The translations under genes were made by a program, and so were the position numbers. Below the pieces are notes generated by a model. The model searched no databases. It saw only the letters and a list, made by a program, of their open reading frames with translations, and had not been told where the DNA came from. A DNA stretch of 64,000 nucleotides, from NCBI GenBank assembly GCA_044229845.1, contig JBGASG010000003.1, forward strand, positions 288,001 through 352,000, in the 5' to 3' direction. The number at the start of each line of letters is the position of its first letter. Position 1 is the first letter of the stretch. This DNA is from Candidatus Obscuribacteraceae bacterium (GTDB lineage Bacteria > Cyanobacteriota > Vampirovibrionia > Obscuribacterales > Obscuribacteraceae). Of this stretch, positions 43,141-64,000 are shown piece after piece.

Positions 43141-43207
43141 TCAATGGGAACAACCGTGTGGCTAAGAAAAGCAGGAACTGTTAAGCTGTTCAACGAGGTA
43201 CCAAGCT

Positions 43208-43486
43208 TTGAAAAAGATCGCCAGTCTGAGTTTGATTGCTTCTCTCGCGGTTTTATCACTTCTGCTGCTATCCACGTACTTTTTCGAAGATCTTCCAATG
43301 GAGTTAGCAGTGGACAGTTGGGAACGCGGACATCCTGATCGAGCAGCCTTCTATAAAACTGGTGTGTTGCACACGCTCGTTGCCAATGTTCAGTGGAATG
43401 TTTTGCATTGCCCCGAGTCCCATCTGCCCGACGCAGCTACTCTTTATCGACTTTATCGAGATTTTCGGGATCACGAAGCCAACTGA
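43208..43486 (+). CDS. Candidate immunity protein (membrane-anchored, possibly truncated)
   Basis: TTG start, MKK plus hydrophobic leader; directly downstream of the RHS toxin. Confidence 0.5.
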   Translation: MKKIASLSLIASLAVLSLLLLSTYFFEDLPMELAVDSWERGHPDRAAFYKTGVLHTLVANVQWNVLHCPESHLPDAATLYRLYRDFRDHEAN

Positions 43487-43592
43487 GATCGACGTCATCC
43501 CTTCTCCACAGGAGTCGGCAGACTCACAGCGGCGCCTCGACATGACTTCGTCTTCCTAACAGGCAACGAGAGGCGAGGGCGAGCGCGAAGGC

Positions 43593-44039
43593 AGATATCG
43601 TCTTCGCGTCAAGCAGCCATGAAGTCCGCGCAGAACGGCTTTCCGGTTTTGAGCACTCCGAAAACTATATGCAGAAGCTTTCGCCCCTGATATCTGGTGG
43701 GGACGCTTAGAGAGCCAGCATCGCCCGAACCAACGGCAAAGCCAGGGAAAGCTGGTGACCGCTTGCGGCTTGATGGTATCGACGATTTCGCCTTCGTGAG
43801 ACTTGAGTGCAGTGAGGTATTACCACCATGGCTGGAGGCATCCAAAGCACCCAGAACTCCTGGAGCTGAGGAATTTTGGTTTTGCCATCGGTGTTGGACC
43901 AACCCTTTTTACGCCCAACACCTCGATACGAAGAGGGCGGTCTGTCCATCGGAGTGGCTCCGCGGACCAGGGCCCCCCGCTGCTACTCCTTACGCCAAGC
44001 TGGAGACCGAACGGGACGGTTGACTCTGCCCGGCTTCAG
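43593..44039 (-). mobile_element. Internally deleted IS110-family element
   Basis: Minus strand encodes RKLLHIVFGVLKTGKPF (IS110 C-terminus) followed by TTGAC-N-GACGATATCT. Degenerate VLGALDASS N-terminal motif. CT at both candidate ends; the left end is less certain. Confidence 0.7.
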
Positions 44040-44040
44040 A

Positions 44041-45966
44041 TCTCCCAATTCGAAAGGCGTCAGCCGCCTGGCAAGCATCTCGTACCCTAATGGCCAGCAG
44101 ACCAAGTTCTCCTGGTTCGATAACGCCAGGAACCAACGCCTGCGCGAAATCACCAATCTCGATCCGAACTCGCAGACGCTCTCACAGTTTGATTATTCCT
44201 ACGATTCTGCCGGGCAGATCACTCGCTGGCTTCAGCAACAAAAGGGCAGCCACCAAAACTTTGCCCTGGATTACGATGCTGCCGGTCAGCTCACTGGCGC
44301 CGCCGCCGGACGCGGTAGCACAGCGCCACCATTCGCCAACCAAAACTTCTACAGCTACGATGCCGCCGCCAACCGTACCTCCGCTCAACAAAGTCAGGTG
44401 CAGAATTTAGTCGTCGCCGGCACTAAAACCACTGGCGACGTGTTGACGGTCACCGTTATCGACAGCGCGCTCTCCGGTGGGCAGCTGGCAGTCCCCTACA
44501 CCGTCGCATCCGGAGATACGCTTACCACCATCGCCCGCAAGCTTGCCGCCACCATCACCTCAAAGGCAGCGCTGCAGACTATAGGCGTTGATGCTGTTGC
44601 GAGCGGCACCACCATCACTTTGCGCTCAAAGTCCCCGAATATAACGACCTATACCACCAGCCTCAGCGGTGGTGCCACAGAGACAATTACTGCCGGCATC
44701 AACTCCGCCACCCATAACATCACCATCGGCGGTACCGCTCACGACGGCGATCAGTTGCAAGTGATTGTCCGCGATCCAGCTCTCTCCGGCGGGCAAACAA
44801 CCGTTAACTATACCGTTCCCACCGGAGCATCCCTCAACACCATCGCTTCTGGGCTGGCCAGCGCCATTAACGCGGACAGCGGCCTGGCGGCGCTTGGCAT
44901 TACGGCTACCTCGAAGCAACGCGTGATTACGGTGAAAACCCTCTCGCCCAACGTCACCAATTTGACGGGCACTGTCTCGGGCACTGGCGCCACGGTGACC
45001 ATGTCCCTCGGTGTCAGCCTTAACGGCTCGGTTACCGCGCTCATTTCCGGGAACGCAACCGCCAACGACGCCCTCACCATTTCAGTTTTCGATGCAGGGC
45101 TCTCCGGCGGGCAGCGCGATATCTCCTACACCGTGCTCCCTTCCGACACGCTTGCCACCATCACGAGCGCGTTGGCAGCAGCCATAAATGCTGACAGTCA
45201 ACTGCGACTGATCGGTGTCAAAGCGTCAGCCTCTTCCACAAAGTTGACGGTCACTTCCGTCTCAACCAACGACACTACCTACCTGCCATCCAAGAGTGCG
45301 GGCGCCACCGAAACTATCCTCTGGGGTCTGCCCGCCAACGGCACCGTCACCGCATCCGTTGCTGGCCCGATTACCGCCGGCGACATCGTGACCATCACCG
45401 TGTTTGACGCCGGTTTGAGCGGCGGCTCCACGTCCGTATCCCACACGGTGGCAGCCGGGGATACGCGCAAAATAATCGCCACCTCCCTCGCTAGCCAGAT
45501 CAACGGCAACACCAGTCTTGCCGCTATTGGAGTTAGTGCTCTCGCCGTCACGCCGGCCGGCTCAGTCAATGTGGTAAACATTACTTCTGCGTCCTCCAAT
45601 GCCACCACGTATGCCAAATCCATAAGTCCCGGCGCGACCTTGTCGCTAACCTTGAGTAAGAGCGTCGGCGTAACGAAGGCAACCTTCAACAACGTCAACG
45701 AACTCACCACGCTGTCTGCCGGCGGCGCCACCAGGTTTCAAGGCACGACAGATCGTCCAGTGCTGCCGGTCACCGTCGATGGAAACGCCGCAGATATGAC
45801 TACCTCACAAAGTTTCAACGGCAATGCAGTGCTAGATGTGAACCCGGACAGCGTCCCAGTCAGCGCCACCACTGGCGGCGGCAGCGGTACAACCACCAAC
45901 GATTACAAACTAGACTATGTCGGTGCCAACGCAACGCTGACCTTCGATGCCAACGGCAATATGACG
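44041..45966 (+). repeat. Copy 2 of the ~1.9-kb direct repeat
   Basis: Matches 40165-42090 with scattered substitutions. Confidence 0.95.
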
Positions 45967-46971
45967 TCCGATGGGACGAATTCGTACTCCTGGGATGCGG
46001 AAAATAGGTTGGTGCAAATCACGTATTCGGGGAGCGGCAACAATAGTCAGTTCGCGTACGATCCATTGGGTCGGAATGTGAAGATTGAGGAACGGACCGC
46101 TGGCAGTGTGACGAGCACAAAGCAATATGTTTGGGTCAGATGGGACCGGCGGGAGGAACGCGACGCATCTGGGAACTTAACGAAAGAGTTTTTCAATGCA
46201 GGGCAGCTTAACGGCAGCACCAAATATTTCTATGCGACCGATTGGCTGGGTTCGATTCGAGAGTTAACTGACAACAGTGGTGCTATCCAAGCTGAGTATT
46301 CTTATGACCCATATGGTCGCCCGACGAAGATTGTTGAGTCCTCGCCTTCAGATTTTGGCTACGCGGGGTTGTTCGTGCACAGCCGTAGTGGTCTGAACTT
46401 TGCCGCCGTTAGGAATTACAACCCCTCCCTTGGTCGCTGGCTGAATCGCGATCCGATTGGCGAACGCGGCGGCCTAAATCTCTACCGTTATGCCAGGAGC
46501 AATCCCATATCCTTCTTTGATCAACTGGGAATGATGGCATCCCAAGGGGGAACAGCAGCCACTCCCCCAGATCCTGGTTCCATAGGCGAGCAAGCAGCAA
46601 GTTCTGCGATGGGTGGTGGTGGTGGTGAGCCCCCAAATCCAAATAAGAAGCCACCAGAGAAAAAAGATCCCGATCCAAAGGATCCGATCGATAAGGAACT
46701 GGAGGATTGCCTCGACGAAGCTGAGCATTGGCTTGAGGCGGCCGAGGAAATCCTGAAGAGACCGGACAATCAAAAACCGAAATGCAGCTCCAAAAAAGGG
46801 AGAAGAGTAACACACGAAGATCTGCTAGAGCAATTTGCGAAAATGATTGCTGACTGTATCGAAGAAGCCGATGAAAAGCGGGAAAAGAGAAACGACCAGG
46901 ATGAGAAAATCCTTCAAAAGATGCGAGAATGGCACAAGTGGTATGTCGAAAACATCAAAAGCAAACTCTGA
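44041..46971 (+). pseudogene. Orphan, 5'-truncated RHS cassette with a different toxin domain
   Basis: Homology to the upstream RHS starts abruptly at 44041. Core YDPYG...GRWLNRDP...NLYRYARSNP..FDQLGM, then an unrelated 145-aa C-terminus. Confidence 0.9.
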
Positions 46972-47626: not shown

Positions 47627-47717
47627 TCGAAGGCACCATATTCGGAAACCCGCAACAGGGCGTTGTTTGAAAAAGTCACGAATGAAACTTAATCGTTTTG
47701 ATCAGACACTGGTAGAT
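47627..47717 (+). repeat. Left arm of a 91-bp perfect inverted repeat
   Basis: Exact reverse complement of 50078-50168; extends 10 bp outward with 2 mismatches. Confidence 0.95.
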
Positions 47718-47728
47718 AAATATGCCAC

Positions 47729-49220
47729 TTAATGCGGTGCGAGACTTGAGGCGAGCTGAGACGCGAGCCACCGGTCCGGTAGCAAATCACCAATCTCCTC
47801 GTAGTCCTGGTTTGTCAGCGTTTCCAGAACGTCTTTCCAGTATTGGAATGGATTCACGGAAAGCAGCTTACAACTATTGGTCAAACTGGCAAGGATTGAG
47901 AAAGTGTCGCCTGCGTCTTCGTCTCCCAAGAACACCAGTTTTTCCTTCCTACCGCTACTGGGCGCAGGGCCCGTTCCGCTGCATTGTTATCGATCGGAAG
48001 AAATCCTCGTTCAGTGTAGCGCGTCAAGTTGGACCAGCGCGAGACCGAGTACTGCAGGGCCTCTCCAATTGCACTTTTCGGCAGTGTGCGAGTCTGAACG
48101 TCGCGCATCCAGTCGTGCATTTCAACCAATCTCGGCACCGCTTCTCGCTGACGAAGTTGGTGGCGGTCATCCTCCTCAAGAAGATTTCCTTGTCGCTCAA
48201 TTTCATACAGGACGTGGATTCTTGCCAAAGCTTCGTCTGCAATCCGAGGATTGTTTCCCTGCGCTCGTTCGAAGTAGCGACGCGCATGCGCCATGCAACA
48301 GAGCCGTTTCGCCTGCGTGGCGCTCGCCAACGCGTCATAACCACCGTAGGCGTCCGCTTGCACGTATCCGGCGAAGTCATTCAAAAAGTCTTGTGCATGC
48401 TTGTGTCCTCGGTCTGGGTGCCACTCAAATATTACGTAGGGGTGGTCTTCGTGACCGAGATAGGTCCAGGCATAACCGGTTGGTGCTTTACCGGCACCCT
48501 TCCTCTGAAACTTCACAGGCGTCTCGTCTGCATGGATTATCCGCGACTGCAATACCTCATCTCGCATTCGCTCGTAAATGGGTCGAACCTTTCTGCACAG
48601 ACTGCAAGCCACCGACTCATGCTGGAACGAGCAACCTTGACTCCCTGGCGTTCATACATCTGCTCTTGTCGGTATAGTGGCAGATGGTTCGCATACTTGT
48701 TTTCGATTGTGTTTGCAAGCAATCCAAATCCTGGCATGCCCTTCGCGATCGGCTGGGCACTTGTTCGGGGTGCTAACACAATATGTCCGTCGCACGTCCT
48801 GCATCCGTATTTAACTTGGCGGTGGTCAGTCACCGCGAACCTGCCTGGAATGTACTCCAGCTCTTTCCATGATTCGTGCCCAATGATCTGCCGCACGTCG
48901 GTGCACTTTGGACATCGCCGCTCTTCATCCGAAAGCGTGTACTCCTGAACAGCTTCTGGAGCGGTCACGGATGTCACCCTCCCTCCACCTCCACGCCGTC
49001 TTTCTGACGTGGCCGATCGCCCGTCGGTATACCCCGAAGCTATTTGTTGAGCGAACAGAGTAAGCTGATTCGGATCTATCTTTTCCGACTTGCTGCCAAA
49101 CTCTTCTCTGAGAAACAATTCAAGACGACGCCCCAGTCGTTCATTGTCTGCCCGCAGCTCCACAATTATTTGATGGCACAAGCTAATATCGTTTGGTAGT
49201 TTTTCCGGACTTACTGGCAT
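47729..49220 (-). pseudogene. tnpC: IS66 transposase TnpC with two frameshifts
   Basis: FGSKSEK, CPKC zinc ribbon, KYANHLPLYRQ, HADETP, QADAYGGY, CMAHARRYF, IDNNAAERALR, LLP. Frame breaks near 48585 and 47935. Confidence 0.92.
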
Positions 49221-49629
49221 ATCTTGTCTCGCTGCAAGAATCTTGCAAGGTCGTATCATGCACCATATGCGGTGTCGACGGTCTGCGAAATCTCTGTCGC
49301 CGGCGGATACTGCTCAAATCAATTCCGTCCAGGATCATTCGCAGTGTGGATGCTTCGATTTCCACGCCGGCGGATGAAAAGTTCTCTAAGTCAGGAAACT
49401 CAAAAGTGCCTTTTGGAAGCATTTTGTACCACATGGCAAAGCCGTCGTTGTCCCAGTACAGCACCTTGATTCGGTCGCCTCGTTTGTTGCGGAAGACGAA
49501 CAGATAACCGGACTGCGGGTCCAAGTTCATCGCACTGCCGACGATGCCGGAAAGTGCATCAAAACTTTGTCGCATGTCAATGTCCGACGTGCAAATGAAT
49601 ATCCTCGTACCCAGAGCAGAACTCAGCAT
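49183..49629 (-). CDS. tnpB: IS66 accessory protein TnpB
   Basis: DMRQSFDAL, LFVFRNKRGDRIKVLYWDNDGF. Confidence 0.92.
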   Translation of the reverse strand: MLSSALGTRIFICTSDIDMRQSFDALSGIVGSAMNLDPQSGYLFVFRNKRGDRIKVLYWDNDGFAMWYKMLPKGTFEFPDLENFSSAGVEIEASTLRMILDGIDLSSIRRRQRFRRPSTPHMVHDTTLQDSCSETRYASKSGKTTKRY

Positions 49630-49630
49630 T

Positions 49631-50019
49631 TCACTTTCCCACAAATCGTTCAAGCAAGATATCTAGCAACTGAGGGTCGACCCCCTCATAAACTCGGAGA
49701 ACCATTTCATCAATCCAAGTCACTTCGGCAAGCAAACGCTCTTGCATCTCAATCGGTTGCGGCGTGTCCGGTAGCACGACGGGAACGAAGGAAGACTGAG
49801 TTCCACGTGTCATCTTGCGGCGCCGTTTCAATCGATCAGCGGCTGCGGCCGCATCGGTTCTCTTGATTCGAGTAACCCAATGTCCCAGTGTATTGACATT
49901 GAGCTTTCCCTTTCGCAAAACGCTTTCTGCGACAGATCAGAAGCCCGCCATTGAAGCAATATGGATCTCCACATCGCCTCCTTTTCTTCGTCCGGCGCGC
50001 CCCGAGATTTACGCGGCAT
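49631..50019 (-). pseudogene. tnpA: IS66 accessory protein TnpA, frameshifted
   Basis: WRASDLSQKAFCERE continues as LNVNTLGHW...SFVPV in another frame (break near 49905). Confidence 0.85.
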
Positions 50020-53446: not shown

Positions 53447-53476
53447 GAAAAAGCCCACCTTTCAGTGGGCTTTTTC
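53447..53476. terminator. Bidirectional intrinsic terminator
   Basis: GAAAAAGCCCAC-CTTTCA-GTGGGCTTTTTC between convergent genes. Confidence 0.85.
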
Positions 53477-53538: not shown

Positions 53539-54312
53539 TTAGCAGGCTTGAGCTGGCGTCAAGCTGCGAATGCTGAGCGAAGAGCTGGCGACAGATTCCG
53601 CGCACACCGAGGCGTACTGTCTTTCAGTGCTCTGCCATTTGGCTTTTACGATGCCGTTCTTGTAGATATCCTGGTGCGTCACGAACGCGATGCGCTGGCA
53701 GATGCTGGAGCCAGCCAGTTCGTTTTGAACTGCTTCTTGATGAGCATCATCGCGCGAGACAATCCAGATCATGTCGATCTCACCGCTCTCCAGCGCCTTT
53801 TCGCAGACGGCGGTCAGTTCCGCGCGATCAGCTTTCGGCTGGTTGATGATACCGATACGGTGATCTACACCATTGCGGTTAAAAGAGATCTTGGCATCAA
53901 TTGCCGTCGTGCCGGGAACCGCTTTCGTGGTTGTCCAAGCGACATTGCTGATCAACCCGTCCTTTTGGTCGACCAGGAAGAGCATGCGAAGATTAGCCAC
54001 TTCCAGAAGGTGGCGCTGGCTGTCGCAGTTGCCCAGGTCGATGTCGGTGCTCTGTGCAGTCAACAACTCGCGCGTCATCGGCGAGAGCATATACACAAGC
54101 GGTTTCGTGGGGGTTGTCCACCACGGAAGTTTGCCGCCGTGCCGTTCGCACAGGAGGTAATCGAGGTAGAAGAGTTTGCGTAGACGGTCGCGGATCAATA
54201 CCGGTTTATCGTCGCAAGAGATAAACCAGGCGATGTGTTTTTCGAGGAGAACTTGATGCTCTTCAATCAGTTTGAAGATCATCATGTCTCTGTCGCTTAG
54301 TTGAATGGCCAT
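53539..54312 (-). CDS. Replication-relaxation (Replic_Relax)-like wHTH protein
   Basis: LSDRDMMIF.LI.EH..L, RDRLRKL, P.VYMLS, HLLEVANL match the family pattern as I recall it; C-terminal nuclease-like motif degenerate. Confidence 0.6.
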   Translation of the reverse strand: MAIQLSDRDMMIFKLIEEHQVLLEKHIAWFISCDDKPVLIRDRLRKLFYLDYLLCERHGGKLPWWTTPTKPLVYMLSPMTRELLTAQSTDIDLGNCDSQRHLLEVANLRMLFLVDQKDGLISNVAWTTTKAVPGTTAIDAKISFNRNGVDHRIGIINQPKADRAELTAVCEKALESGEIDMIWIVSRDDAHQEAVQNELAGSSICQRIAFVTHQDIYKNGIVKAKWQSTERQYASVCAESVASSSLSIRSLTPAQAC

Positions 54313-54422
54313 TGGGGGTGGTCCTCGTTTTGTTGTTTTGCCAGCGATCTTTCGGGGGTGTGCTTCTTGGTGTGGGGGGAGTCTTGCGACTCAGTTAGAC
54401 TCTATATGTTTTCAACCGTTCT

Positions 54423-55118
54423 TCATAGGTTAGGATCACGTGTTGTGTATTGCAAAAGTGCATCATCATGACGCGGTTGGTGAAGGTTGTAAGTGACTCT
54501 CATTTTGGAATCCATCATTTTTAGAGAGCGATATTGCTGTCTGAGCCCTTCGACACGGGTATGAATTTCTTCCAGCGAGGCTTGCAGTTCTTCTTGAGTC
54601 TTGGCCGCCTTGCGTGGGCGAATCATATCTTCGAAAACCGCAGCGGAATCGTCGTACCAGTCCGCCATGTTCTGCATGTAGACTGTGCTTTCCGGCATTC
54701 CATTGCAGGGCGGCATCGAACGAATGGTCTTAGCTAGCAGACGGTATCTCTTCGCGATTCCGGCAGCAGTGCGCGACCATTCCATGACCCGCTCGACTTC
54801 TTGATTGAGCGGCTTTTTCATAATCACGGCTTCGCTGACCGTCACTTTGTAGTGACCAACAGCGTCGTCATAGGCTTCCATCCACTCCAACGGTTTCGAT
54901 TGCGGAGTTACTCGCGGCATGACCCACGGGGGAGTCGGACGCTTGTAGGTGTTGGCAGCAGCATTCGGCACAGGTGCCGTGGTGCGGTTGAAAACGTCTC
55001 CTTTTTGTTGCGGATGACCGCCGTTCGGCTGCGTCGCTTGCGCCATGGAGGAGGCGAAAGTGGTGGCAGCGAAGATGGCGCTGGTCAATGCAATTTGGAT
55101 ACGTTTCGTGGCTGTCAT
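54423..55118 (-). CDS. Exported alpha-helical hypothetical protein
   Basis: Signal peptide ending MAQA, Pro-rich linker, helical domain. Confidence 0.8.
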   Translation of the reverse strand: MTATKRIQIALTSAIFAATTFASSMAQATQPNGGHPQQKGDVFNRTTAPVPNAAANTYKRPTPPWVMPRVTPQSKPLEWMEAYDDAVGHYKVTVSEAVIMKKPLNQEVERVMEWSRTAAGIAKRYRLLAKTIRSMPPCNGMPESTVYMQNMADWYDDSAAVFEDMIRPRKAAKTQEELQASLEEIHTRVEGLRQQYRSLKMMDSKMRVTYNLHQPRHDDALLQYTTRDPNL

Positions 55119-55185
55119 GTCCGTGGTCTGCTGCTAGTTGTCTGTCGGTAATACTGATGTTTTTCGCGCAGTGTGAGTTTCTTGC

Positions 55186-56673
55186 TTACGGTCCTGGGTT
55201 CGCTGGTCCACCCGGGTTCGCTGGTCCTGCTGGTCCTGCTGGTCCTGCTGGAGCCGGTCCCGGATTGGTCGGCGGAAGGAACGGTCCACCCGGTCCACCA
55301 CCGCCCGGTCCTGGAATGTTCATGCGCGTGCCGTCTTGGTACTGCGCCCAGGTGTCAGTAGAGTTGAAATCAAAGGTGTTCATCTGGACGATCTTCCAGA
55401 TGGTGTAGCCGGCGAGCAGGAGGAGCAAACCACCGACTGCACCGATGACTCGCGAACCGCCGTACGGGCTGCCGAAGACCATCGACCACGCTGCCAGAGC
55501 AACGATGATGGTGGCCATAACGACGCCCAGGATAACCAGATAGCGAGAGAAGACTCTTACTGTCGGGAGCGGTCCCATGAAGTCATATTTTGGTTGTTGT
55601 TTTTGACGGTTGAGTTGGGTGTCTTGTTCGCCGTTGGCTCCAGCTTTGGCTCCGCCGTTGTTAACGATGCCGAGACCATTGTTGTTGCCGCCGTTGTTGA
55701 CGACTTGTTGTCCGCCGTTGCCGCCGCCGAAGTCGTTCTGACGTGTGCCACCATTGCCGGCACCACCTTCGAACTGACCGTTGCCGCCGTTGCCGGCACC
55801 ACTTTCAAATACGCCGCGTCCGCCGTTGCCCTGGCCGCCTTCGAACAGTCCCTGACCGCCGTTGCCGCCACCGCCTTCGAACACGCCTTGACCGCCGTTA
55901 CCAGCGCCGCCTTCGAAGAAACCACGGCCACCGTTGCCCTGACCGCCTTCGAACGTGCCGCGACCGCCATTGCCCTGGCCGCCTTCGAACAGTCCTTGAC
56001 CGCCATTGCCGGCGCCGCCTTCGAACATGCCCTGACCGCCGTTGCCATAGCCACCTTCAAAGGTGCCTTTGCCATTGTTGCCCCAGCCGCCTTCGAAGAG
56101 TCCCTGTCCGCCGTTGCCGGCGCCGTTTTCATACTTGCCCTGACCGCCGTTGCCGTAGCCGGGTTCGTAGGTGTTTTTGCCGCCGTTGCCCCAGCCGCCT
56201 TCGTAGAGACCTTGACCGTTGATCGGCGCGCCGTTTTCATACACACCGTCCATTTGACCGTGTTGTGTTTGATAACGACCGTAGTTGTTGATGACTGGAC
56301 CTTTGGTGCCCGGGGCGCCACGGGTTCCGAAAATGTTGCCGTGTGTCGGATCGGCAAAGCTGGACGGAGGCAAGCTCGAAGCGCCTTGATCGCCGGGAAT
56401 GACACGCGGAGCCATGGAGCCATCGCCGACCGGCGGCGGTTGTCCTTGCGGAGCAGCTTGGTTAGGACGCTGCCAGGAAGCACCATGGATCAAAGGAGTA
56501 CGCAATGTCGATTGTTGCGTCGGACCGGACAAGCATGGCTTGGTCGGGTTGTACAGCATCTCGGCATATTCAGCGCGAGCGGTTGTCGGTGCGAACAGCA
56601 TCACCACACCAGTGATGATCAGGCTGATCGCCGTCAACGCTTGTTTTACTCCAACTCTATCCTTGCCTGACAT
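55186..56673 (-). CDS. Exported Gly-rich tandem-repeat protein with a C-terminal two-TM, pilin-like segment
   Basis: AGGAGA RBS overlapping the rpoB-like stop; signal peptide ending ARA; 13 x 12-aa repeats; two hydrophobic helices; Pro/Gly tail. Confidence 0.85.
   Translation of the reverse strand: MSGKDRVGVKQALTAISLIITGVVMLFAPTTARAEYAEMLYNPTKPCLSGPTQQSTLRTPLIHGASWQRPNQAAPQGQPPPVGDGSMAPRVIPGDQGASSLPPSSFADPTHGNIFGTRGAPGTKGPVINNYGRYQTQHGQMDGVYENGAPINGQGLYEGGWGNGGKNTYEPGYGNGGQGKYENGAGNGGQGLFEGGWGNNGKGTFEGGYGNGGQGMFEGGAGNGGQGLFEGGQGNGGRGTFEGGQGNGGRGFFEGGAGNGGQGVFEGGGGNGGQGLFEGGQGNGGRGVFESGAGNGGNGQFEGGAGNGGTRQNDFGGGNGGQQVVNNGGNNNGLGIVNNGGAKAGANGEQDTQLNRQKQQPKYDFMGPLPTVRVFSRYLVILGVVMATIIVALAAWSMVFGSPYGGSRVIGAVGGLLLLLAGYTIWKIVQMNTFDFNSTDTWAQYQDGTRMNIPGPGGGGPGGPFLPPTNPGPAPAGPAGPAGPANPGGPANPGP
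55756..56223 (-). repeat. 13 tandem 36-bp coding repeats (NGGxGxFEGGxG)
   Basis: Strict 12-aa periodicity in the translation. Confidence 0.9.
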
Positions 56674-56686
56674 TATGTGGTCTCTC

Positions 56687-59600
56687 CTATGAGTCCTGAT
56701 TGTGATTGTCAGAATTGCCATCTTCCTTTTTGGCAGGCGCGACGGTCACCGTCTGGGTGAGTTGCGCAAGTTGTCGCGAGAGCGACGCGAGTTCACTGAT
56801 CGACGGGAAGTCGAGCATCTCGTCGGATTCATCGGCCCAGAGGCTGGCGGCCAGCGATCTGGCGACATCCTGGGCGGTGGAAGGAGCTTCAGTCGCCGGA
56901 ACTTGCAGTTCTTCAGCGTGCACCACTTCCGGTTCTACTTGTTCGGCGCAGGGGATGCCCTGAGCGGCAGCACCAATTACGGTGGCTTCGGGTTCCAGCC
57001 CCATTGGTTGCACCAGTTCGGCCAACTCTTCCAGAGTTTCTGGGCTCATTTCGAGCATCGCCGGATCCATCACGTCTTTCTCGGCACGAGCCGGCATGTC
57101 GGTGAGGATGTCGGTTGTTTGTTCGCTGATGAATGCATCGAGCAGGTCGGAAGAAACCGGTTCGTCTTCGATATCGTCGATGAGCGGCTCCATGGACATT
57201 TCGAATTTGGTTTTGACGGCGCCCTTGGCGTTGGTGACGGAGGTGATGATCGGTGCCGTCGGCGTCGGGCGCACGACAGGCTCGTAATCGCCAGCCGGAA
57301 TCTCGATGATGTTTCTGCCTTCTTCTTCGAATTGAGCAACTTTGGAGACCATGTACTCTTCTTCGAGCGACTTGGCAGCGGCTTCGCGAGCGTCTTTCTC
57401 GGCAGCCTCTTCTTGGGCTTCGACGTATTTGCCCAGAGTCACTTCCAGACCGAGACCGCGCAGTTCGCAGCACAGTCCGTCGAAAGCAGCGGTGCGTCCG
57501 CCGGCGGTGACTTCCTTGCCTTGCACCATATCGGCATAAGCTTGATGGCGGCCTTGAATGTCATCGGACTTGATGGTCATCATTTCGTGCAGCAGGTGCG
57601 AGGCGCCGTAGGCTTGAATTGCCCAGACTTCCATTTCGCCCATGCGCTGTCCGCCGTGGTTGGCTTTGCCGCCGACCGGCTGTTGTGTAACAGCGGCGTA
57701 CGGTCCGCCCAATCCGGAGCGGGCATTGATTTTGTGCAGAACCAACTGGTTGAGCTTCAGCATGTACTGTCTGCCGACCAGGACCGGCGAGTCGAAAGCT
57801 TCGCCTGTTCTGCCGTCAAACAATTGCACTTTGCCGGATTCGGTAACCCACTCATAGCCGGGCAGTTTGCGCACTTCGGCAAGAGCTTGGGTGACGAGCT
57901 TGAAGGAAGCATCTTTTTCCAGCGATTCGTCGAACTGGTGAATGCGATAGTGACGATTGAGGATGCTGGAATAAAGACCTAGTTGTGTGTCGAATACTTG
58001 ACCGACGTTCATACGGCTGGGGACGCCCAGTGGATTCAACACGATGTCGCACGGAGTGCCGTCCGGCAGGTAAGGCATGTCTTGATCAGGAACTACGATC
58101 GAGACGATACCTTTGTTGCCGTGGCGTCCAGCCAGCTTGTCGCCGACTTCGAGCGGGCACAAACGCGCGATAAGTACTTCGATTTCGCAGATGATGCCAG
58201 CTTTCAATTCCGGTGTGGTTTCCGGTGTGAAGATGCGGACATCGATAACGCGACCACCCGAGCCGTGCGGAACACGCAGGCTGCTGTCAGCCATTTCTTC
58301 CGCCACTTTACCGAAGATAGCTTGCAAGAGTTCTTCTTCAGCGGAGAGAGCGCGAGCTTCTTTCGGGCTCAATTTGGCGACGAGAATATCGCCCGGGTTG
58401 ACGTAGCTGCCGACCATGGCGATGCCGCGTTCGTCGAGATGCTCGAGGTCTTTACCGGCGACGTTCGGCAGTTCCGGCGTCAGAATTTCTGGTCCGCGCA
58501 GGGTCTGGTGAACACCGATGGAGTGCTTTTCGATTTCGATGTGCGAAAGTTTGTGGTCGCGGATCAAACCTTGACGGACGACAATCGCGTCTTCGAAGTT
58601 GTAGCCGTTCCATGGCACGAAGGCGACGAGAAGGTTTCTTCCCAGAGCCAGTTCGCCTTGATCGATACCAGGACCATCAGCGATGATCTGTCCGGCTTCG
58701 ACGCGATCGCCCTGTCTGACGATCGGGCGCTGGTCGAGAATTGTGTTCTGGTTGGTGCGGTCGAAGCGAATCATGTTGTAGGTGCGCGATTCGCCGGAAG
58801 CTTGGGTGATGACGATCTGATCGCCGTTGACCAGGCTGACAGTACCGGCGCGACGGGCGACGACTGAGTGACCGGACGAGCGAGCGACGATTTTTTCCAT
58901 GCCGGTGCCGACGCGCGGACGTTCCGGCTTGATCAAAGGCAGAGTTTGGCGCATCATGCCGCCACCCATGAGAGCGCGGTTGGCGTCATCATGCTCGAGG
59001 AAAGGAATGAGAGCCGATCCGACCGAGATGAAACCTTGCGGAGCAATACCGATCATGTCTACTTGATCTGGTGTCACTTCGAAGAACTGTTCGCCGCAGC
59101 GTGCCGAAACGAACGGTCCTTGAATCATGTCGTTTTCGACTTTGGTGTCGGGCGGTGCAAGCGTGAAACGCTTGTCGTCTGATGGTGTCAGGTAACGGAC
59201 TTCATTGGTCACATGTCCGTTTTGCACGACGCGATAGGGAACGGTCATGAAGCCGTCGTCATCGATACGGCAGTAGGTTGCCAGATATGCCACCATACCG
59301 CAGTTTTTACCTTCAGGCGATTCCACCAGGCACACGCGACCGATTTGCGAAGGATGCACATCGCGCATTTCGTTCGGAGCGGCGTTCGGGTCGATGCCAC
59401 CAGGACCGAAGGAGGTGATTCTTCTTCTGTGCGACAGTTCGGAAAGTGGGTTCTGTTGGTCGAGGTATTGAACCAGGGGGTTGCCGGCGAAGAACTTGCT
59501 CATGGCATTGACGAACGGGCGCGAATCGACGAAATCATTGGCGCTGCCGATTTCATCTTCTTCGAACAGTTCGAGGCGGGTGCGAATCGAGCGCGACATT

Positions 59601-60598
59601 TGTGCCAGCGCCGGACGCAGCCCCTTGGTCATCACATCGCCGATACCGCGCAGGTGGCGGTTTTCCAAGCTGTCGATATTATCTGTTTGTCCAGAGCCGA
59701 GCGGCAAAAGCAGAATGTATTCGATAGCAGCAAGAATATCTTCAGCGGTCAGTTGCGAAGAGCGCTCTTCCAGACGCAGCTTATCGTTGAAGCGGCGACG
59801 ACCGAGCGAACCGAGTGAATAACGACGTTTGTCGGTGAGTTCTTTCAGGGCAGCATGACCGGATTGCGAACCGCCGCCACCATCTGGTTTCCACGCGCGA
59901 CCGACGACGGAAAGCGCTTCTTGCTGAGTGACTTGTTTCCACTCGATGCGATTCTTTTCCAGAAGCGGAGCGAGACGTTTTTGAATGGTGGACAGTTCGA
60001 CGCCCATGGCGGTCAACACTGTGGTGGCAGCCACCCAACCACGTTTGGGCAATTTGATACGGCATTTGGCGCGGCTGGTTTTGCCACTGCCGGTTTCCAG
60101 ATCCAGTTCGACGGAGACCGGAGCGCCGAGTTCAGCCAGGATAAGAGCTTTGTAGAGCATCGGGTTGTTCATTTGGAAATAGACGCCTGGTGCACGCACC
60201 AGTTGTCCGAGGACGACGCGCTCGGAACCGTTGATGACGAAGGTTCCACGATCGGTGATCACCGGCAGGTCGCCCATGTAAGCAGTCGACTTGCGCAGTT
60301 CGTTGGTTTGCAGGTCACGCAGCCACACATCCATGAGCAGGCGACGGGCATGCGTCATGTTAGTCTTGCGAGCTTGCTCGGCAGAACTGGGATAACCGGA
60401 ATCAACTGCATAATCTTCGAACTTCCAGTGAGCTTTGCCGTCGGGTCCGACGAACGAAAGTTCAAGGCGCGGATTGAATTCGCTGGCAATCGGAGAGATT
60501 TCAGCGAAGAGGGCGCCCAGGGTTTCTTCCAGAAAACGTCGGTATGAACGTCTCGGGAATTCTGCCAGATCTGGAGGCTGGAAGTAGAAGTTACTCAT
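56687..60598 (-). CDS. rpoB: Divergent DNA-directed RNA polymerase subunit beta (probable paralog) with acidic C-terminal tail
   Basis: GTFVINGSERV, PFLEHDDANRALMG, GYNFEDA, GDKLAGRHGNKG, NPLGVPSRMNVGQ, QQPVGGKA..GGQRMGEMEVWA, TIKSDD. No rplL or rpoC neighbours. Confidence 0.95.
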   Translation of the reverse strand: MSNFYFQPPDLAEFPRRSYRRFLEETLGALFAEISPIASEFNPRLELSFVGPDGKAHWKFEDYAVDSGYPSSAEQARKTNMTHARRLLMDVWLRDLQTNELRKSTAYMGDLPVITDRGTFVINGSERVVLGQLVRAPGVYFQMNNPMLYKALILAELGAPVSVELDLETGSGKTSRAKCRIKLPKRGWVAATTVLTAMGVELSTIQKRLAPLLEKNRIEWKQVTQQEALSVVGRAWKPDGGGGSQSGHAALKELTDKRRYSLGSLGRRRFNDKLRLEERSSQLTAEDILAAIEYILLLPLGSGQTDNIDSLENRHLRGIGDVMTKGLRPALAQMSRSIRTRLELFEEDEIGSANDFVDSRPFVNAMSKFFAGNPLVQYLDQQNPLSELSHRRRITSFGPGGIDPNAAPNEMRDVHPSQIGRVCLVESPEGKNCGMVAYLATYCRIDDDGFMTVPYRVVQNGHVTNEVRYLTPSDDKRFTLAPPDTKVENDMIQGPFVSARCGEQFFEVTPDQVDMIGIAPQGFISVGSALIPFLEHDDANRALMGGGMMRQTLPLIKPERPRVGTGMEKIVARSSGHSVVARRAGTVSLVNGDQIVITQASGESRTYNMIRFDRTNQNTILDQRPIVRQGDRVEAGQIIADGPGIDQGELALGRNLLVAFVPWNGYNFEDAIVVRQGLIRDHKLSHIEIEKHSIGVHQTLRGPEILTPELPNVAGKDLEHLDERGIAMVGSYVNPGDILVAKLSPKEARALSAEEELLQAIFGKVAEEMADSSLRVPHGSGGRVIDVRIFTPETTPELKAGIICEIEVLIARLCPLEVGDKLAGRHGNKGIVSIVVPDQDMPYLPDGTPCDIVLNPLGVPSRMNVGQVFDTQLGLYSSILNRHYRIHQFDESLEKDASFKLVTQALAEVRKLPGYEWVTESGKVQLFDGRTGEAFDSPVLVGRQYMLKLNQLVLHKINARSGLGGPYAAVTQQPVGGKANHGGQRMGEMEVWAIQAYGASHLLHEMMTIKSDDIQGRHQAYADMVQGKEVTAGGRTAAFDGLCCELRGLGLEVTLGKYVEAQEEAAEKDAREAAAKSLEEEYMVSKVAQFEEEGRNIIEIPAGDYEPVVRPTPTAPIITSVTNAKGAVKTKFEMSMEPLIDDIEDEPVSSDLLDAFISEQTTDILTDMPARAEKDVMDPAMLEMSPETLEELAELVQPMGLEPEATVIGAAAQGIPCAEQVEPEVVHAEELQVPATEAPSTAQDVARSLAASLWADESDEMLDFPSISELASLSRQLAQLTQTVTVAPAKKEDGNSDNHNQDS

Positions 60599-62697
60599 TA
60601 CTTAGCCACCTCGACATCGCCATTACCGCTCACCATGGAGCGTTTGTGAATCGCAAGCGCCCGGGCCAGGTCTTCGGCGTAAGCGCGATTTGCTGGTTCG
60701 AGAGCAGACGCGATCCGGAATTCAGAGATTGCATCAGCGATGCGACCGGCGGCCAGCATGTTGACGGCCAGGCGGTGGTGCACTTCGCTGTTTTGAAGGA
60801 ACTTAGCGGCCACGCCTTGCAGGATGCTGATGGCTTGGTCGTAGTTCTTGTCGCCTTCGGCTTGCGCAGCTTTCGAAATCGCTTCGGCGACTTGGCTGTT
60901 TGCTGAGTTTGCTGCGTTCGGCTTCTGGGCGGCTTGCTGTTGAGCAGCCAGAGCTTGTTGTTGGCGAGCTTGCTGCTGTTGGGCGGCGATTGCTTGTTGC
61001 TGGGCAGCCACGGCTTGCTGTTGCATCATTTGCTGTTGCGACATTTGCTGCGGCATGGCGCCGGCAGCCGGCATTGACTCGTTGTGCGTGCGCAGACCAT
61101 ACTGGTTGCCGGCCATTTGCATGCCGTTACCGCCTTCGAACACGTTCTTTTGCGGAACGGGCGGCGGGTAGGCAGCTTGTTGCTGCATCGGTTGCTGCTG
61201 TTGCACTTGCGGTTGTTGCATTTGCTGCTGCTGTTGCTGCTGCATTTGCACCATTTGCTGAGAAACGCTTTGTTGCGGCTGAGCGAGTTGGCTGGCCACT
61301 TGATTGACTTGCGGAATCTGCATACCGCGATTCTTCATGCCCGACTGCATTTCGCGCATGCGAGCAGCGGCTTCGCGGTTGTTTTCGGGATCGATAAGCA
61401 CGCAGGTCAGGTAGGCCTGGTAGGCACCTTGGTAGTCGCCATTGGACTCGAGGGTTTCGCCCATCAGGAATTGATACTTGGCGTTGCGGGGCTCCATCAT
61501 CACAGCCTGAGTGATTTCAGCGAGAGCTTCGCGGCGCAGACCTTGACCAAAGAATGTTTCGGCGGCGGCTTTGTGCTTTTCGGCGGAAGCGTGCTGGAGA
61601 GCTTTTTGCAGGCTGGCACGACCGGAAGGCAGACCAGGATGTTTGGGATCGAGAGCTTCCAGTTTGCGGTATTCATTGTCGGCACCAGCGAAGTCGCCGG
61701 TCAATTGCAGGGCGCCAGCCAGACCGAGGTGGTTTTCGGCGAGCAATGGATTTTGTGCCACTTGCCGGCGCCAAATTTCAACCAGTTGTTGACCAGCGGC
61801 GGCATCGCGCGGATCGCAGATGACTGCTTTGCGCAGCGAAGCACCAGCGCCGGTGTAGTCTTTTTGAGCCAGAGCCAGCATGCCCAGTTGGCGATGGGCT
61901 GGTCCGAAGTTGGGATCTTTGATCAGAGCTTGTCTATACCAGTTGGTGGCGGTGGTCAATTGACCATAACGCAGAGCCATATCGCCGACTTTGACGAAAG
62001 TGCGAGCCGTGGGCTCGATTTGCATGGCGGCCTGGTATTCAATAGATGCGCCTTCGAAGTCGCCGACAGCAGCCAGTTGGTCGCCGGTGGCGATTCTGGT
62101 CTCGGCGTTGTTGGGGTCACGACCCATCTTCTTAAGGGCTTCACCGAGCAAACGACCAGCCAGTCCGTTGTCTGGAGCGGCGGCGAGGGCTTGGCGGAAA
62201 AGGTTGGCCGCGGTGTTGAAGTCGCGGGCGTTCAGTCTTTCTTGACCGTAGGCGCAACGCGCTGCCGAAAGGTTGATTTTGTATTGCTTGTTGCTGGGCT
62301 CGTACTTGCAGGCTTCTTCGTGAGCAGCAATCGACTCGGACCAGCGACCTGCTTTTCCGAGTGACACACCTTTATTGTTTTGTTCGAGGGCGTACTGGAC
62401 GCGACGCTTGAAGTTGTCGCCGACGGCTTGTTGTTCTTTGGCTGCCTTTTCTTCAGCCGCTTTCTTAGCTTCTTCAGCAGCTTTCTTCTTTTCGGCTTCG
62501 ACAACACGGTAGTCGGGACGGCGCTGGAATCCGCTCACTACCGGAGCGCTGGTCTGACCTTCTTCGAAATTCTTCAGGTCGCGCTCGCGGGGCAGCGGCT
62601 GGGCGTTCATCTTGGTGGCATGCGCCGGGATGAACATCGTGCCCGAGAGCGTGGTGGCGAGAAGGAGAGTTGCTGCGATGGGTCGAACTTTGTGCAT
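60598..62697 (-). CDS. Exported TPR protein with Gln-rich linker
   Basis: Signal peptide MHKVR...PAHA, 34-aa TPRs, poly-Q tract; stop overlaps the rpoB-like start (TAATG). Confidence 0.9.
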   Translation of the reverse strand: MHKVRPIAATLLLATTLSGTMFIPAHATKMNAQPLPRERDLKNFEEGQTSAPVVSGFQRRPDYRVVEAEKKKAAEEAKKAAEEKAAKEQQAVGDNFKRRVQYALEQNNKGVSLGKAGRWSESIAAHEEACKYEPSNKQYKINLSAARCAYGQERLNARDFNTAANLFRQALAAAPDNGLAGRLLGEALKKMGRDPNNAETRIATGDQLAAVGDFEGASIEYQAAMQIEPTARTFVKVGDMALRYGQLTTATNWYRQALIKDPNFGPAHRQLGMLALAQKDYTGAGASLRKAVICDPRDAAAGQQLVEIWRRQVAQNPLLAENHLGLAGALQLTGDFAGADNEYRKLEALDPKHPGLPSGRASLQKALQHASAEKHKAAAETFFGQGLRREALAEITQAVMMEPRNAKYQFLMGETLESNGDYQGAYQAYLTCVLIDPENNREAAARMREMQSGMKNRGMQIPQVNQVASQLAQPQQSVSQQMVQMQQQQQQQMQQPQVQQQQPMQQQAAYPPPVPQKNVFEGGNGMQMAGNQYGLRTHNESMPAAGAMPQQMSQQQMMQQQAVAAQQQAIAAQQQQARQQQALAAQQQAAQKPNAANSANSQVAEAISKAAQAEGDKNYDQAISILQGVAAKFLQNSEVHHRLAVNMLAAGRIADAISEFRIASALEPANRAYAEDLARALAIHKRSMVSGNGDVEVAK

Positions 62698-62889
62698 CGT
62701 GGTGGAAGAACCGTGCCGGTGGCGAACTGTGAGCACAGCTTAACGATGCGGGGGGTATGCGGTCTATTGGGGTTTGTCCCACGGCATTCGTAAATCTCCC
62801 ATGCCGGATAAAATCGCGCCCCATGGGCGTTCACCCGCCGTTTTGAGTTGCGTAAAAACCGCAAGATTTCGCGTGTCGGGATGACAGAC

Positions 62890-63999
62890 TTAGCGCAAGG
62901 TCTGCAAAACGGTCGGGCGAGCCAGAACAGTGTCAGATCCAAATGGCTGTTGTTTGTTTCGTACGTCGACTGTAGGCAGAGGCGGGACCAGGTGGTTATT
63001 TTCTTCATCGCAAGCGAACCCGGCCATGTGTTGAGCATCGAACACAGGTTCTGCATATCGGGGCTCGCTTGTTTCCTCCCCTACCAGAACCGGGTGGGAC
63101 ATGGTCTTGGTCATAGCGTATTCGATATCTGCCATGGACATCGCGGGTGCAGGTGGACAGGTTCCTGGGTCCGGCACGTTTGCTTCTCTAGTTTTAAGAG
63201 CTGATGGAGTAGTGATAGCCGGTAAATTAGAAACAGGGTCAGCCTGTCTTTCAGGGAAAGCGTCTTGCTCATAGTTCTGGTTAGGACTCCACCCCACCAG
63301 TGCCGGCACGATCGACGCGCTGGCGTCGGCGGGCAGACCCTTCCCATGTTCAGGCATAAAACCGTGAATAGGCTGGCGGTCGTGAGCAATGAGCTGGTAG
63401 GGGTCGGCCATCGCCGAGGGCTTGCCGGACGGCGCCGGGGTGACAGGCTGGGGCGGCGTCGGGGTGTTTTCCTGCTCTTCGATTTGCTGGCGCAGCTGTT
63501 CCAGGGTACTGGTCAACGCCTGCTTCGCCGCAGACACGCGCATACCAAAATACATGCGGAAGTCCATGCCGCTGAGACCGGGAGTGCGACCCGCCTTCAT
63601 GTTCCAGATGGGCTCAGCGCGAGCAAAGACTTGGAAGCCGGGAATTTGTCTGAACAGTCTGCGAGCAATCTCGAAATCAGAGATCATAGTGTAATTATTC
63701 TTGGGGATGGTGGCATGTTCGCGAAATGGTTCGCGGAAGTTCTGCACGAAGGTGGAGGTGGCCGAGAACGTCCATCCACCACGTTGATGCACCATACCCC
63801 AAGTGTAAAAGGGGTCTATTTCCCGGTTTGGAGATTTGAAATAGCCGGTGCCGCGCAACTGCAAGAGACAATTGGCAAACACCACCGTATTTGGTGGCGT
63901 AGTCAGAACGCGAGTAGCGGTGATGCCGGGCAAAAAGTCGAACAATGGCAGCTGATTGGTCTGCCAGAGATCGCGGAACTGCATTTCGACTTGAACGTT
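62890..63999 (-). CDS. Partial hypothetical protein; possible outer-membrane beta-barrel segment followed by a low-complexity tail
   Basis: Frame is open to the window edge; alternating aromatic beta-strands (WTFSATSTF, FQVFARAE, FRMYFGMRVS). Confidence 0.6.
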   Translation of the reverse strand, partial: NVQVEMQFRDLWQTNQLPLFDFLPGITATRVLTTPPNTVVFANCLLQLRGTGYFKSPNREIDPFYTWGMVHQRGGWTFSATSTFVQNFREPFREHATIPKNNYTMISDFEIARRLFRQIPGFQVFARAEPIWNMKAGRTPGLSGMDFRMYFGMRVSAAKQALTSTLEQLRQQIEEQENTPTPPQPVTPAPSGKPSAMADPYQLIAHDRQPIHGFMPEHGKGLPADASASIVPALVGWSPNQNYEQDAFPERQADPVSNLPAITTPSALKTREANVPDPGTCPPAPAMSMADIEYAMTKTMSHPVLVGEETSEPRYAEPVFDAQHMAGFACDEENNHLVPPLPTVDVRNKQQPFGSDTVLARPTVLQTLR

Positions 64000-64000
64000 C

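Follow-up and report, generated by a model that had tools for sequence, protein, structure and literature searches.

We describe a minus-strand operon in a 64,000-nt stretch of the genome of a Candidatus Obscuribacteraceae bacterium (assembly GCA_044229845.1, contig JBGASG010000003.1, positions 288,001 to 352,000; the whole stretch is called the window below) that carries a second, divergent gene for the RNA polymerase beta subunit, here named rpoB2. The gene belongs to a conserved unit of five, in the order TPR-rpoB2-membrane-helical-winged-helix, and new here is that a conserved palindrome and a sigma70-type promoter are common to this operon and to a chromosomal cluster resembling a type IV secretion system (T4SS). 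Our preferred reading, to which we assign a probability of roughly 0.6, is that RpoB2 is a swap-in beta subunit for the T4SS-like program and is switched by a neighboring NarL-type regulator. The host genome is 88% complete and belongs to the order Obscuribacterales of the non-photosynthetic class Vampirovibrionia.

Exactly two rpoB matches were found in the genome, so that rpoB2 is not its only copy: rpoB2 itself (56687-60598, minus strand; 1303 aa, made up of a core of about 1060 aa and an acidic tail) and, on a separate contig, a housekeeping rpoB (C1:23731-27300) that is followed by rpoC1 and rpoC2 and is 45% identical to it. The initial annotation had called the gene a divergent RpoB from the sequence alone, and the assignment stands, as the product passes the curated rpoB models NF001616 (1078 bits, cut-off 896) and TIGR02013 (1034 bits, cut-off 801). 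The Pfam domains Rpb2_2, Rpb2_3, Rpb2_45, Rpb2_6, and Rpb2_7 scored above their cut-offs, with Rpb2_1 slightly below. The composition, which had been judged native by eye, is also native by count, with a GC content of 0.53-0.60 against about 0.55 for the genome, and a third-codon-position GC (GC3) for rpoB2 of 0.627, within the genome's 25-75% range of 0.623-0.680.

The list of open reading frames (ORFs) of the window contains all six of the co-oriented minus-strand genes first described, running from past 64000 down to 53539. Both of the described junctions are likewise present in the sequence: the TPR stop and the rpoB2 start share the overlap TAATG, and a GGAG overlaps the rpoB2 stop, 13 nt ahead of the next ATG at 56673. 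In 28 of 33 loci the end of TPR runs 1-4 nt into the start of rpoB2, which makes an internal promoter driving rpoB2 alone unlikely. The operon ends at the bidirectional terminator that had been proposed, an intrinsic-terminator-like hairpin of 12 pairs at 53447-53476, flanked by A and T runs and shared with a convergent TPR gene.

Sequence searches found rpoB2 in 33 of 36 other genomes of the same family and in one of three from the order's second family (72-98% identity), giving 34 of 39 other genomes of the order, with some of the matches partial at contig ends. The same search returned no matches in 21 genomes of other orders of the class, and a phylum-wide sample of 45 genomes, which partly overlapped the first sample, gave nothing above housekeeping-level matches. 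The three same-family genomes with no rpoB2 match are 58, 71, and 85% complete, and in genome G002, 58% complete, neither rpoB2 nor the housekeeping rpoB was found. Across genera, identity is 72-81%, and the gene is single-copy as a rule. Genome G007 has two regulator-TPR-rpoB2 loci (L009 and L012), which may be a binning artefact because this genome is 8% contaminated.

Conservation of gene order was one of the checks proposed in the initial annotation. Scanning 185,579 species genomes with an alignment of the winged-helix gene retrieved 91 relatives, of which 80 were kept. Among loci with enough upstream DNA to be assessed, the winged-helix gene is preceded by the helical gene in 76/76, the membrane-protein gene in 74/75, rpoB2 in 69/69, and TPR in 65/65, always in this order; it is thus the membrane-protein gene (74/75 loci), rather than rpoC, that comes directly after rpoB2. 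As the genomes are kin, these counts show conservation and not independent events. Of the six genes first grouped as a unit, the sixth, encoding a barrel-like protein, falls outside this conserved core: among the 33 relatives' loci with a TPR gene, it is TPR's immediate upstream neighbor in 4 (L003, L006, L007, and L038) and elsewhere in L008, and the conserved promoter sits between it and TPR. Eight operon records (L072, L080, L081, L086, L092, L094, L113, and L132) carry the labels Proteobacteria, Planktothrix, Drouetiella, Bryobacterales, Actinobacteria, or Flavobacterium, and are likely mislabelled or mis-binned, because their sequences group among the Obscuribacterales orthologs.

RpoB2 is under strong purifying selection, with nonsynonymous-to-synonymous rate ratios (dN/dS) over the core of 0.002-0.062 in 16 pairs (one of 17 pairs was not computable). 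Two quick trees, for which 21 rows were dropped in the first and 15 more, long or redundant, in the second, group RpoB2 with bacterial RpoB and put it at the base of Cyanobacteriota (SH-aLRT branch support 98 and 93) on a very long stem of 3.5 and 4.7 changes per column. A duplication inside Obscuribacterales was, however, not rejected (approximately unbiased test, p-AU 0.38), so the age suggested by this basal placement is tentative. Among the best 150 of 22,274 RpoB2 matches in a 50%-cluster library of 1.84 billion representatives, two are about 80% identical and the others at most 46%, with no intermediate relative.

To describe residue changes, 30 full-length RpoB2 paralogs, 21 housekeeping copies, and E. 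coli RpoB were aligned, and E. coli numbering is used for these changes. Unchanged in 30/30 paralogs are E813, D814, K1065, K1073, R678, R687, Q688, R529, and R1106, along with Q513, D516, H526, D446, R151, R451, D1084, and G1215, the last two of which we take to have a role in subunit assembly. Taking as reference the 466 positions that are identical in E. coli and at least 20 of the 21 housekeeping copies, RpoB2 has kept 265, switched 113 (a different residue fixed in at least 28 of 30 paralogs), relaxed 86, and gapped 2. Positions were kept most often in the catalytic region (44/54) and residues 661-830 (52/70) and least often in the lobe (16/52) and protrusion (12/34), and the switches are scattered over all domains.

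Among the switches, W183P, D199P, R540P, and R542A are fixed in 29-30 of 30 paralogs, and the gate loop is also switched. In the text available of PMC5101437 and 10.1101/2023.06.26.546588, W183 and D199 hold non-template DNA, and the role of R542 is likewise drawn from these sources. The flap carries K844L, L845R, K900E, R903Q, and E908K, of which the last three reverse the charge of the flap tip and are fixed in 29-30/30; the beta flap contacts sigma region 4, and class II activators touch both the flap and its tip, according to the available part of PMC5101437. Switch 3 is altered as well, with a two-residue insertion. Another switched pair is K118R/E119K, at what is presumably the surface for Mfd and CarD. 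Changes in the rifamycin pocket are fixed at V146L, S512V, S531T, L533F, I572V, and S574Y, and in E. coli rifamycin resistance results from S574Y and from substitutions at L533 and V146. The acidic tail (56687-57400 of the window; RpoB2 residues ~1070-1303) is variable, but two short motifs in it, near RpoB2 residues 1099-1107 and 1265-1277, are conserved and are possible binding sites.

A second rpoC was not found in this genome by tblastn, although a very distant beta' could lie below the sensitivity of that search. Searches with PF00623 found one rpoC1 locus each in 30 of 31 family genomes, and rpoA is single in this genome. Given these search results, RpoB2, if it works in a polymerase, would have to share its alpha and beta' partners and the other core subunits with the housekeeping enzyme. 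No unusual sigma factor was seen among 14 of this genome's 16 sigma70 region-2 proteins, which were read by eye. In public RNA data, rpoB2 is partly present in 17 sludge or bioreactor runs from 5 studies (share at most 0.20 in four of the runs), and contigs lie on all five core genes in 4 runs from 4 studies; these contigs indicate presence only, because they come without strand, level, or start, and the libraries may contain DNA. The barrel-like gene is thinly covered in these data, to which we attach no weight.

All 31 loci that could be assessed have, immediately ahead of TPR, a box of the form TGGGA-N4-(T/C)(A/C)C(G/C)A. It is usually paired, with the copies 20 bp apart, and is followed by a -35-like hexamer and TAAGCT. 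In the window, the box alignment places a degenerate upstream copy at 62788-62801 and the promoter-proximal palindromic copy, a predicted activator site, at 62768-62781, 20 bp from the first; the latter abuts a conserved sigma70-type promoter at 62737-62766, comprising the -35-like TAGACC (62766-62761), an 18-nt spacer, and the -10-like TAAGCT (62742-62737), all on the minus strand. Transcription is predicted to start near 62730. A strict consensus promoter scan did not pick up this operon promoter. Boxes ahead of three downstream operon genes were found in 1/31, 0/30, and 0/30 loci. Two further copies of the double box in the genome reach 37 bits, whereas the site ranked after them scores 5; these copies precede a 78-aa ORF of no known family (C18:109178-109512, box at C18:109158) and an 881-aa coiled-coil protein (C18:374763-377572).

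The box model was built from 58 distinct aligned instances and has the palindromic consensus TGGGA-N4-TCCCA. With a symmetric matrix trained on other genera only, sites scoring at least 16 in this genome number 17 in intergenic DNA, which makes up 13% of the genome by rough gene calls, and 2 in coding DNA, whereas 30 permuted matrices gave means of 0.9 intergenic (maximum 4) and 3.3 coding sites. The signal rests on position and not on raw number, because the perfect palindrome occurs 9 times against 1-5 times for other spacer lengths (0-10). At the T4SS-like cluster loci, a -10-like TAnnnT starts 21-26 nt past the box in 31 of 38 cases, nearly always at 23-24, compared to 4 and 3 cases in control windows. 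As the box abuts the -35, it would occupy the position of a class II activator site.

A divergent NarL/LuxR-type response regulator gene adjoins the operon (C18:353257-355776; L176:16257-18776) and is present within the fetched 10 kb in 44 of 63 loci, often followed by two conserved envelope genes. Copies of the regulator in 34 of the order's 39 genomes share 82-100% identity, making it more conserved than RpoB2, and none was found in 21 genomes of other orders at E 1e-60. We favor this regulator over the winged-helix protein of the operon as the probable binder of the box, by about two to one.

One box heads the chromosomal T4SS-like cluster at C13:1-12876 (L177; relatives L183-L202). The cluster encodes two Pro-rich exported proteins, a 138-aa two-helix protein, a 1572-aa VirB6/TrbL-like protein (Atlas scores 0.90-0.93), a DUF2225-like protein, and a PrgI-like ORF, and in relatives it is followed by VirB4. 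Boxes are present at 19 of 20 relatives' cluster loci; the two-helix gene lies beside the VirB6-like gene in 19 (80-99% identical), and VirB4 comes next in 17, this being a third VirB4, about 27-33% identical. Within the order, searches found the VirB6-like core in 37 of 39 genomes and a second VirB4 in 27 of 27; in other orders the corresponding counts were 0 of 21 and 0 of 13. PF19044 (VirB4) scored over its cut-off at C17 and C13, while the closest NCBIfam family, the CD1110 conjugal family, stayed below its own. No description of this Obscuribacterales cluster was found in the literature searched.

Pfam matches were obtained for 10 of 20 scanned genes (19 near boxes and one paralog of the helical gene), with LysM, C39 and C11 peptidase, glucosaminidase, RHS, GGDEF, and NFACT among the domains, and several box-associated proteins start with low-complexity, signal-less N-termini. 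The VirB4 genes at C17:20254-33818 (L178) and C13:100089-102914 (L179) stand among housekeeping genes; the former shows 76-86% identity throughout the order, and large exported proteins and an OEP-like fragment are encoded ahead of it. A further cluster at C18:219081-245336 (L182), with VirD4-like (C18:238264-242577) and HerA/FtsK-like ATPases and zinc-ribbon, LysM, and 3443-aa proteins, is possibly the coupling module of the secretion system. PF13814, the one relaxase family searched for, was unmatched in this 88% complete genome. In genome G002 (C4:479357-575512), VirB4 and VirB6-like matches contain internal stops, which suggests either that the secretion system is decaying or that the sequence is of poor quality.

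The other products of the operon, all encoded on the minus strand, are mostly predicted to be exported. The TPR protein (60598-62697) matches Pfam TPR families and has a signal-peptide-like N-terminus; the longest ORF begins at 62736, but the -10 of the promoter (62742-62737) overlaps its GTG, and so the start is probably the ATG at 62697. In an alignment of its orthologs, the membrane protein (55186-56673) begins with a signal-like segment, varies in its middle part, and contains a conserved hydrophobic core of two helices. The Gly repeats by which it was first described are present here, but they are confined to a few lineages, and most orthologs carry another N-terminal domain. Its N-terminus is common to two exported proteins of the T4SS-like cluster (E 6e-8 and 2e-6). 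Its Atlas neighbors are pilin-type clusters of integrative and conjugative elements (ICEs) and T4SSs, with scores of 0.80-0.86, and no match to the pilin families PF18895 or PF04956 was found in 30 members, so we treat its likeness to VirB2/T4SS pilins as a lead only. The helical-bundle protein (54423-55118) could not be assigned to a family by alignment and structure model (pLDDT 82.8; best structural match Z 10.2, rmsd 3.4 over 141 residues); its fold matches are generic helical bundles, and VirB5 is not listed among them, which does not exclude VirB5. The barrel-like gene (62890-64000 for the 3' part) extends past the window end as a 601-aa ORF (C18:350890-352695) with no Pfam or NCBIfam match; its export is predicted, and its beta-barrel-like fold is read only from the sequence pattern.

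The winged-helix protein (53539-54312) is predicted to be cytoplasmic and to have the Replic_Relax/MOBC-type architecture of a winged helix followed by a restriction-endonuclease-like fold. Its model (pLDDT 79) matches a MarR-type winged helix-turn-helix (Z 7.9, rmsd 3.0 over 71 residues) and FokI (Z 7.5, rmsd 3.1 over 117), Z values of 7-8 being middling; the best Foldseek hits are type IIS nucleases (E 1.5e-3). The first 76 residues are near-invariant across orthologs. All of the best 120 of 301 matches are at least 50% identical, and no relative was found in PDB sequences, plasmids, or viral contigs. We take the MOBC-type catalytic motif to be D...E-x-(D/E); D139 is present in 23 of 28 orthologs, and the next motif strand (153-158, IGIINQ) has no acidic residue. 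PF13814 (Replic_Relax) is the MobC relaxase domain in the available text of PMC5357655. The initial label of Replic_Relax-like therefore holds at the level of fold and not of family, since the window protein has no Pfam match and one of 28 orthologs reaches E 0.0043. Given this single profile match and the missing second acidic motif, we read the protein as a predicted nuclease-dead, relaxase-fold DNA-binding protein.

Elsewhere in the window, two large RHS/YD-repeat-type ORFs of 2234 and 1031 aa were seen by eye at 36436-46971; the 2234-aa ORF starts with a C39-peptidase-like segment, and after the 1031-aa ORF comes a 119-aa ORF that is a possible immunity gene. Also identified by eye, at 47700-49920 and thus 4-6 kb from the operon, are IS66-like transposase genes that appear to be frameshifted.

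Under our preferred reading of RpoB2 as a swap-in subunit, a signal would activate the NarL/LuxR-type response regulator encoded divergently beside the operon, and the regulator would bind TGGGA-N4-TCCCA next to the -35 of sigma70-type promoters, turning on the rpoB2 operon, the VirB4/VirB6/pilin-like cluster, and the putative secreted hydrolases. RpoB2 would then join the shared alpha, gamma (RpoC1), and beta' (RpoC2) subunits to give a second active polymerase, whose altered lobe, fork loop, flap, and switch 3 would make it respond differently to sigma region 4, class II activators, bubble DNA, and pause or repair factors. This enzyme would sustain or lock in the secretion program, which would most likely be a contact-dependent attack on, or attachment to, other cells, with the co-encoded exported proteins as surface parts of the machine and the winged-helix protein as a nuclease-dead DNA-binding accessory. 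We would go further only tentatively, with odds short of even, to suggest that the RpoB2 polymerase is the dedicated machine of a predatory or cell-contact state, reading its regulon selectively by means of a rewired flap, fork loop, and clamp, so that core-subunit exchange would stand above sigma exchange.

We would like to note several points that weigh against this reading. The binding of RpoB2 to alpha and beta', its RNA synthesis, and its promoter use are all inferred from sequence, and the shared box speaks for co-regulation, not for transcription of those genes by RpoB2. The initial proposal, a swap-in beta subunit co-expressed with a surface or secretion apparatus, gains real support in its link to secretion from the box common to the VirB4/VirB6/pilin-like cluster, while assembly and reprogramming are still inferences. 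The box-binding protein is a predicted one, and of the 21 box sites in this genome no more than 9 show a -10 at the expected distance. Genomes G014 and G037 retain boxes, but the regulator, rpoB2, and the winged-helix gene were not found there, and G038 has the regulator with no rpoB2 nearby; assembly gaps and real losses are indistinguishable here. H1237, which contacts the primer phosphate in the available text of 10.1101/2021.04.06.438613, is Q in 30/30 paralogs, and H1244N, N684G, W183P, and R542A alter the active-site cleft too, because of which the activity of RpoB2 may be lower or different. Finally, the VirB6-, pilin-, and PrgI-like proteins have no Pfam or NCBIfam match, the PrgI- and pilin-like labels follow from sequence pattern and position, and the box-linked hydrolases are putative effectors by virtue of their hydrolase domains and lack of a signal peptide.

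Those same substitutions could also mean that RpoB2 is a shut-off device, being either poorly active or promoter-blind, or titrating alpha and beta', and so damping housekeeping transcription for as long as the secretion state persists. H1237Q, W183P, D199P, R540P, R542A, and the charge-reversed flap tip, fixed in 29-30/30, would suit such a role, as would the lack of a dedicated beta' and of an unusual sigma factor among the 14 of 16 read by eye. We nevertheless think this unlikely, as none of the metal- and NTP-side residues varies, conservation is greatest in the catalytic region, and the 113 switched positions hold new residues as conserved as the old, which fits changed function better than loss. 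An improbable alternative of another kind is that the machine moves DNA instead of toxins, as a domesticated conjugation-like apparatus for exchanging chromosomal DNA, with the RpoB2 polymerase and the relaxase-fold protein jointly opening or priming the DNA at transfer origins. The VirB4s are nearest to the CD1110 conjugal family, a VirD4-like gene is present at C18:238264-242577, and the winged-helix protein has a MobC/PF13814-type architecture, but its second acidic motif is missing (153-158, IGIINQ) and the genome has no PF13814 member. The box targets moreover include LysM, C39 and C11 peptidase, and glucosaminidase domains, and the relaxase-less chromosomal T4SS of Patescibacteria is thought to be co-opted for other uses (PMC12102498, in the part available). 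Apart from these rivals, the two alternatives offered in the initial annotation both appear partly right: the components look like those of a conjugation module that has been domesticated, and the locus has become chromosomal and is present across the order.

A role for RpoB2 as a spare subunit conferring antibiotic resistance, as with actinomycete rpoB(R)/rpoB2, would account for the rifamycin-pocket changes (V146L, S512V, S531T, L533F, I572V, and S574Y), but we regard it as very unlikely given that Q513, D516, H526, and R529 are retained and that the switches run across all domains, whereas in actinomycetes the two copies are set apart by five substitutions and a deletion of six residues in the available text of PMC5431353; the idea also leaves the operon and box unexplained. 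Since the other genes of the operon mostly encode exported proteins and the regulon of rpoB2 includes signal-less putative effectors, its product might instead be secreted to poison or redirect the polymerase of a prey or host cell. Effectors are expected to evolve fast and patchily, and the 72-81% identity across genera and dN/dS below 0.07 are unlike this; no immunity-like partner was seen, and we hold the idea to be highly improbable. The possibility that the locus is a recent or decaying passenger of a mobile element or prophage, to which its pilin-like and relaxase-fold neighbors and the IS66-like element 4-6 kb away might point, is largely refuted already by the same gene order in 69/69 loci, the native GC3, the strong selection, and the lack of a winged-helix-gene relative in plasmids or viral contigs, and we give it next to no credence.

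Specialization of a polymerase by a paralogous core subunit is represented by the second-largest subunits of plant Pol IV/V and by phage two-subunit polymerases, the latter bringing their own beta' partner, and Francisella reportedly has non-identical alpha subunits, both in one enzyme. In contrast to the Francisella and phage enzymes, only beta is duplicated here, and RpoB2 clusters with bacterial RpoB; unlike for phage or prophage polymerases, no second rpoC was found (tblastn; PF00623 in 30 genomes), nor a viral locus for the winged-helix gene. The nearer comparison is with actinomycete rpoB duplicates, namely rpoB(S)/rpoB(R) of Nonomuraea gerenzanensis and rpoB2 of Nocardia farcinica, where, in the available text of PMC5431353, the paralog is distinguished by a six-residue deletion and five substitutions, among which H526N is central, and is linked to a global transcriptional switch, as we propose for RpoB2. 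Both cases have a second beta beside the wild-type copy, other core subunits that in RpoB2's case are presumably shared, and changes in the fork and rifamycin region. Unlike the near-identical actinomycete copy, however, RpoB2 is 45% identical, keeps H526 in 30/30 paralogs, and has 113 switches over all domains, and it is order-wide, in an envelope-protein operon, with a box in common with a T4SS-like cluster.

The secretion genes appear to resemble the T4SS of Patescibacteria more than that of Vampirovibrio. As far as the available part of PMC12102498 goes, the former has chromosomal, monoderm-type VirB4 with VirB6-, PrgI-, and VirB2-like genes, lineage-wide and usually with no relaxase, and no RNA polymerase paralog is mentioned there; no search aimed at one was made. 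Obscuribacterales differ in having genomes of 2-9 Mb, two to three VirB4 paralogs, and the shared promoter box. Vampirovibrio chlorellavorus is of the same class, and its T4SS is proposed, in the available text of PMC4451040, to deliver hydrolases to prey; unlike in Obscuribacterales, it is of the VirB4_T type, is carried in part on plasmids, and comes with relaxases. Searches with VirB4 and the VirB6-like protein of Obscuribacterales had no matches in the other orders sampled. The winged-helix protein resembles Replic_Relax/MOBC relaxases in its two domains, as these are laid out in the available part of PMC5357655, but it differs from them in scoring below the Pfam threshold, lacking the second acidic motif, having no adjoining coupling-protein gene, and occupying a fixed chromosomal position.

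We found no description of rpoB2 in the literature searched, which mostly excluded subscription journals, so that a passing mention elsewhere is possible; the pertinent papers among those listed on rpoB duplication concern actinomycetes or resistance genes, and PMC8047818 and 10.64898/2026.08.25.746930 do not mention it in the parts available. The presence of rpoB2 means that rpoB is not single-copy in Obscuribacterales, which affects marker-gene phylogeny, contamination scores of genome bins, and rpoB amplicon counts. Bacteria are held to use one core RNA polymerase that is retargeted by sigma swapping, and in the known exception, a few actinomycetes, the second beta differs by a handful of residues. 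If our preferred reading is true, more than 100 fixed changes on the DNA-, sigma-, and factor-facing surfaces of RpoB2 would amount to specialization by core-subunit exchange, and the paralogs provide a natural set of mutants for the roles of W183, R540/R542, H1237, and the flap tip. The regulon is additionally a first handle on the lifestyle of Obscuribacterales, and it suggests contact-dependent secretion.

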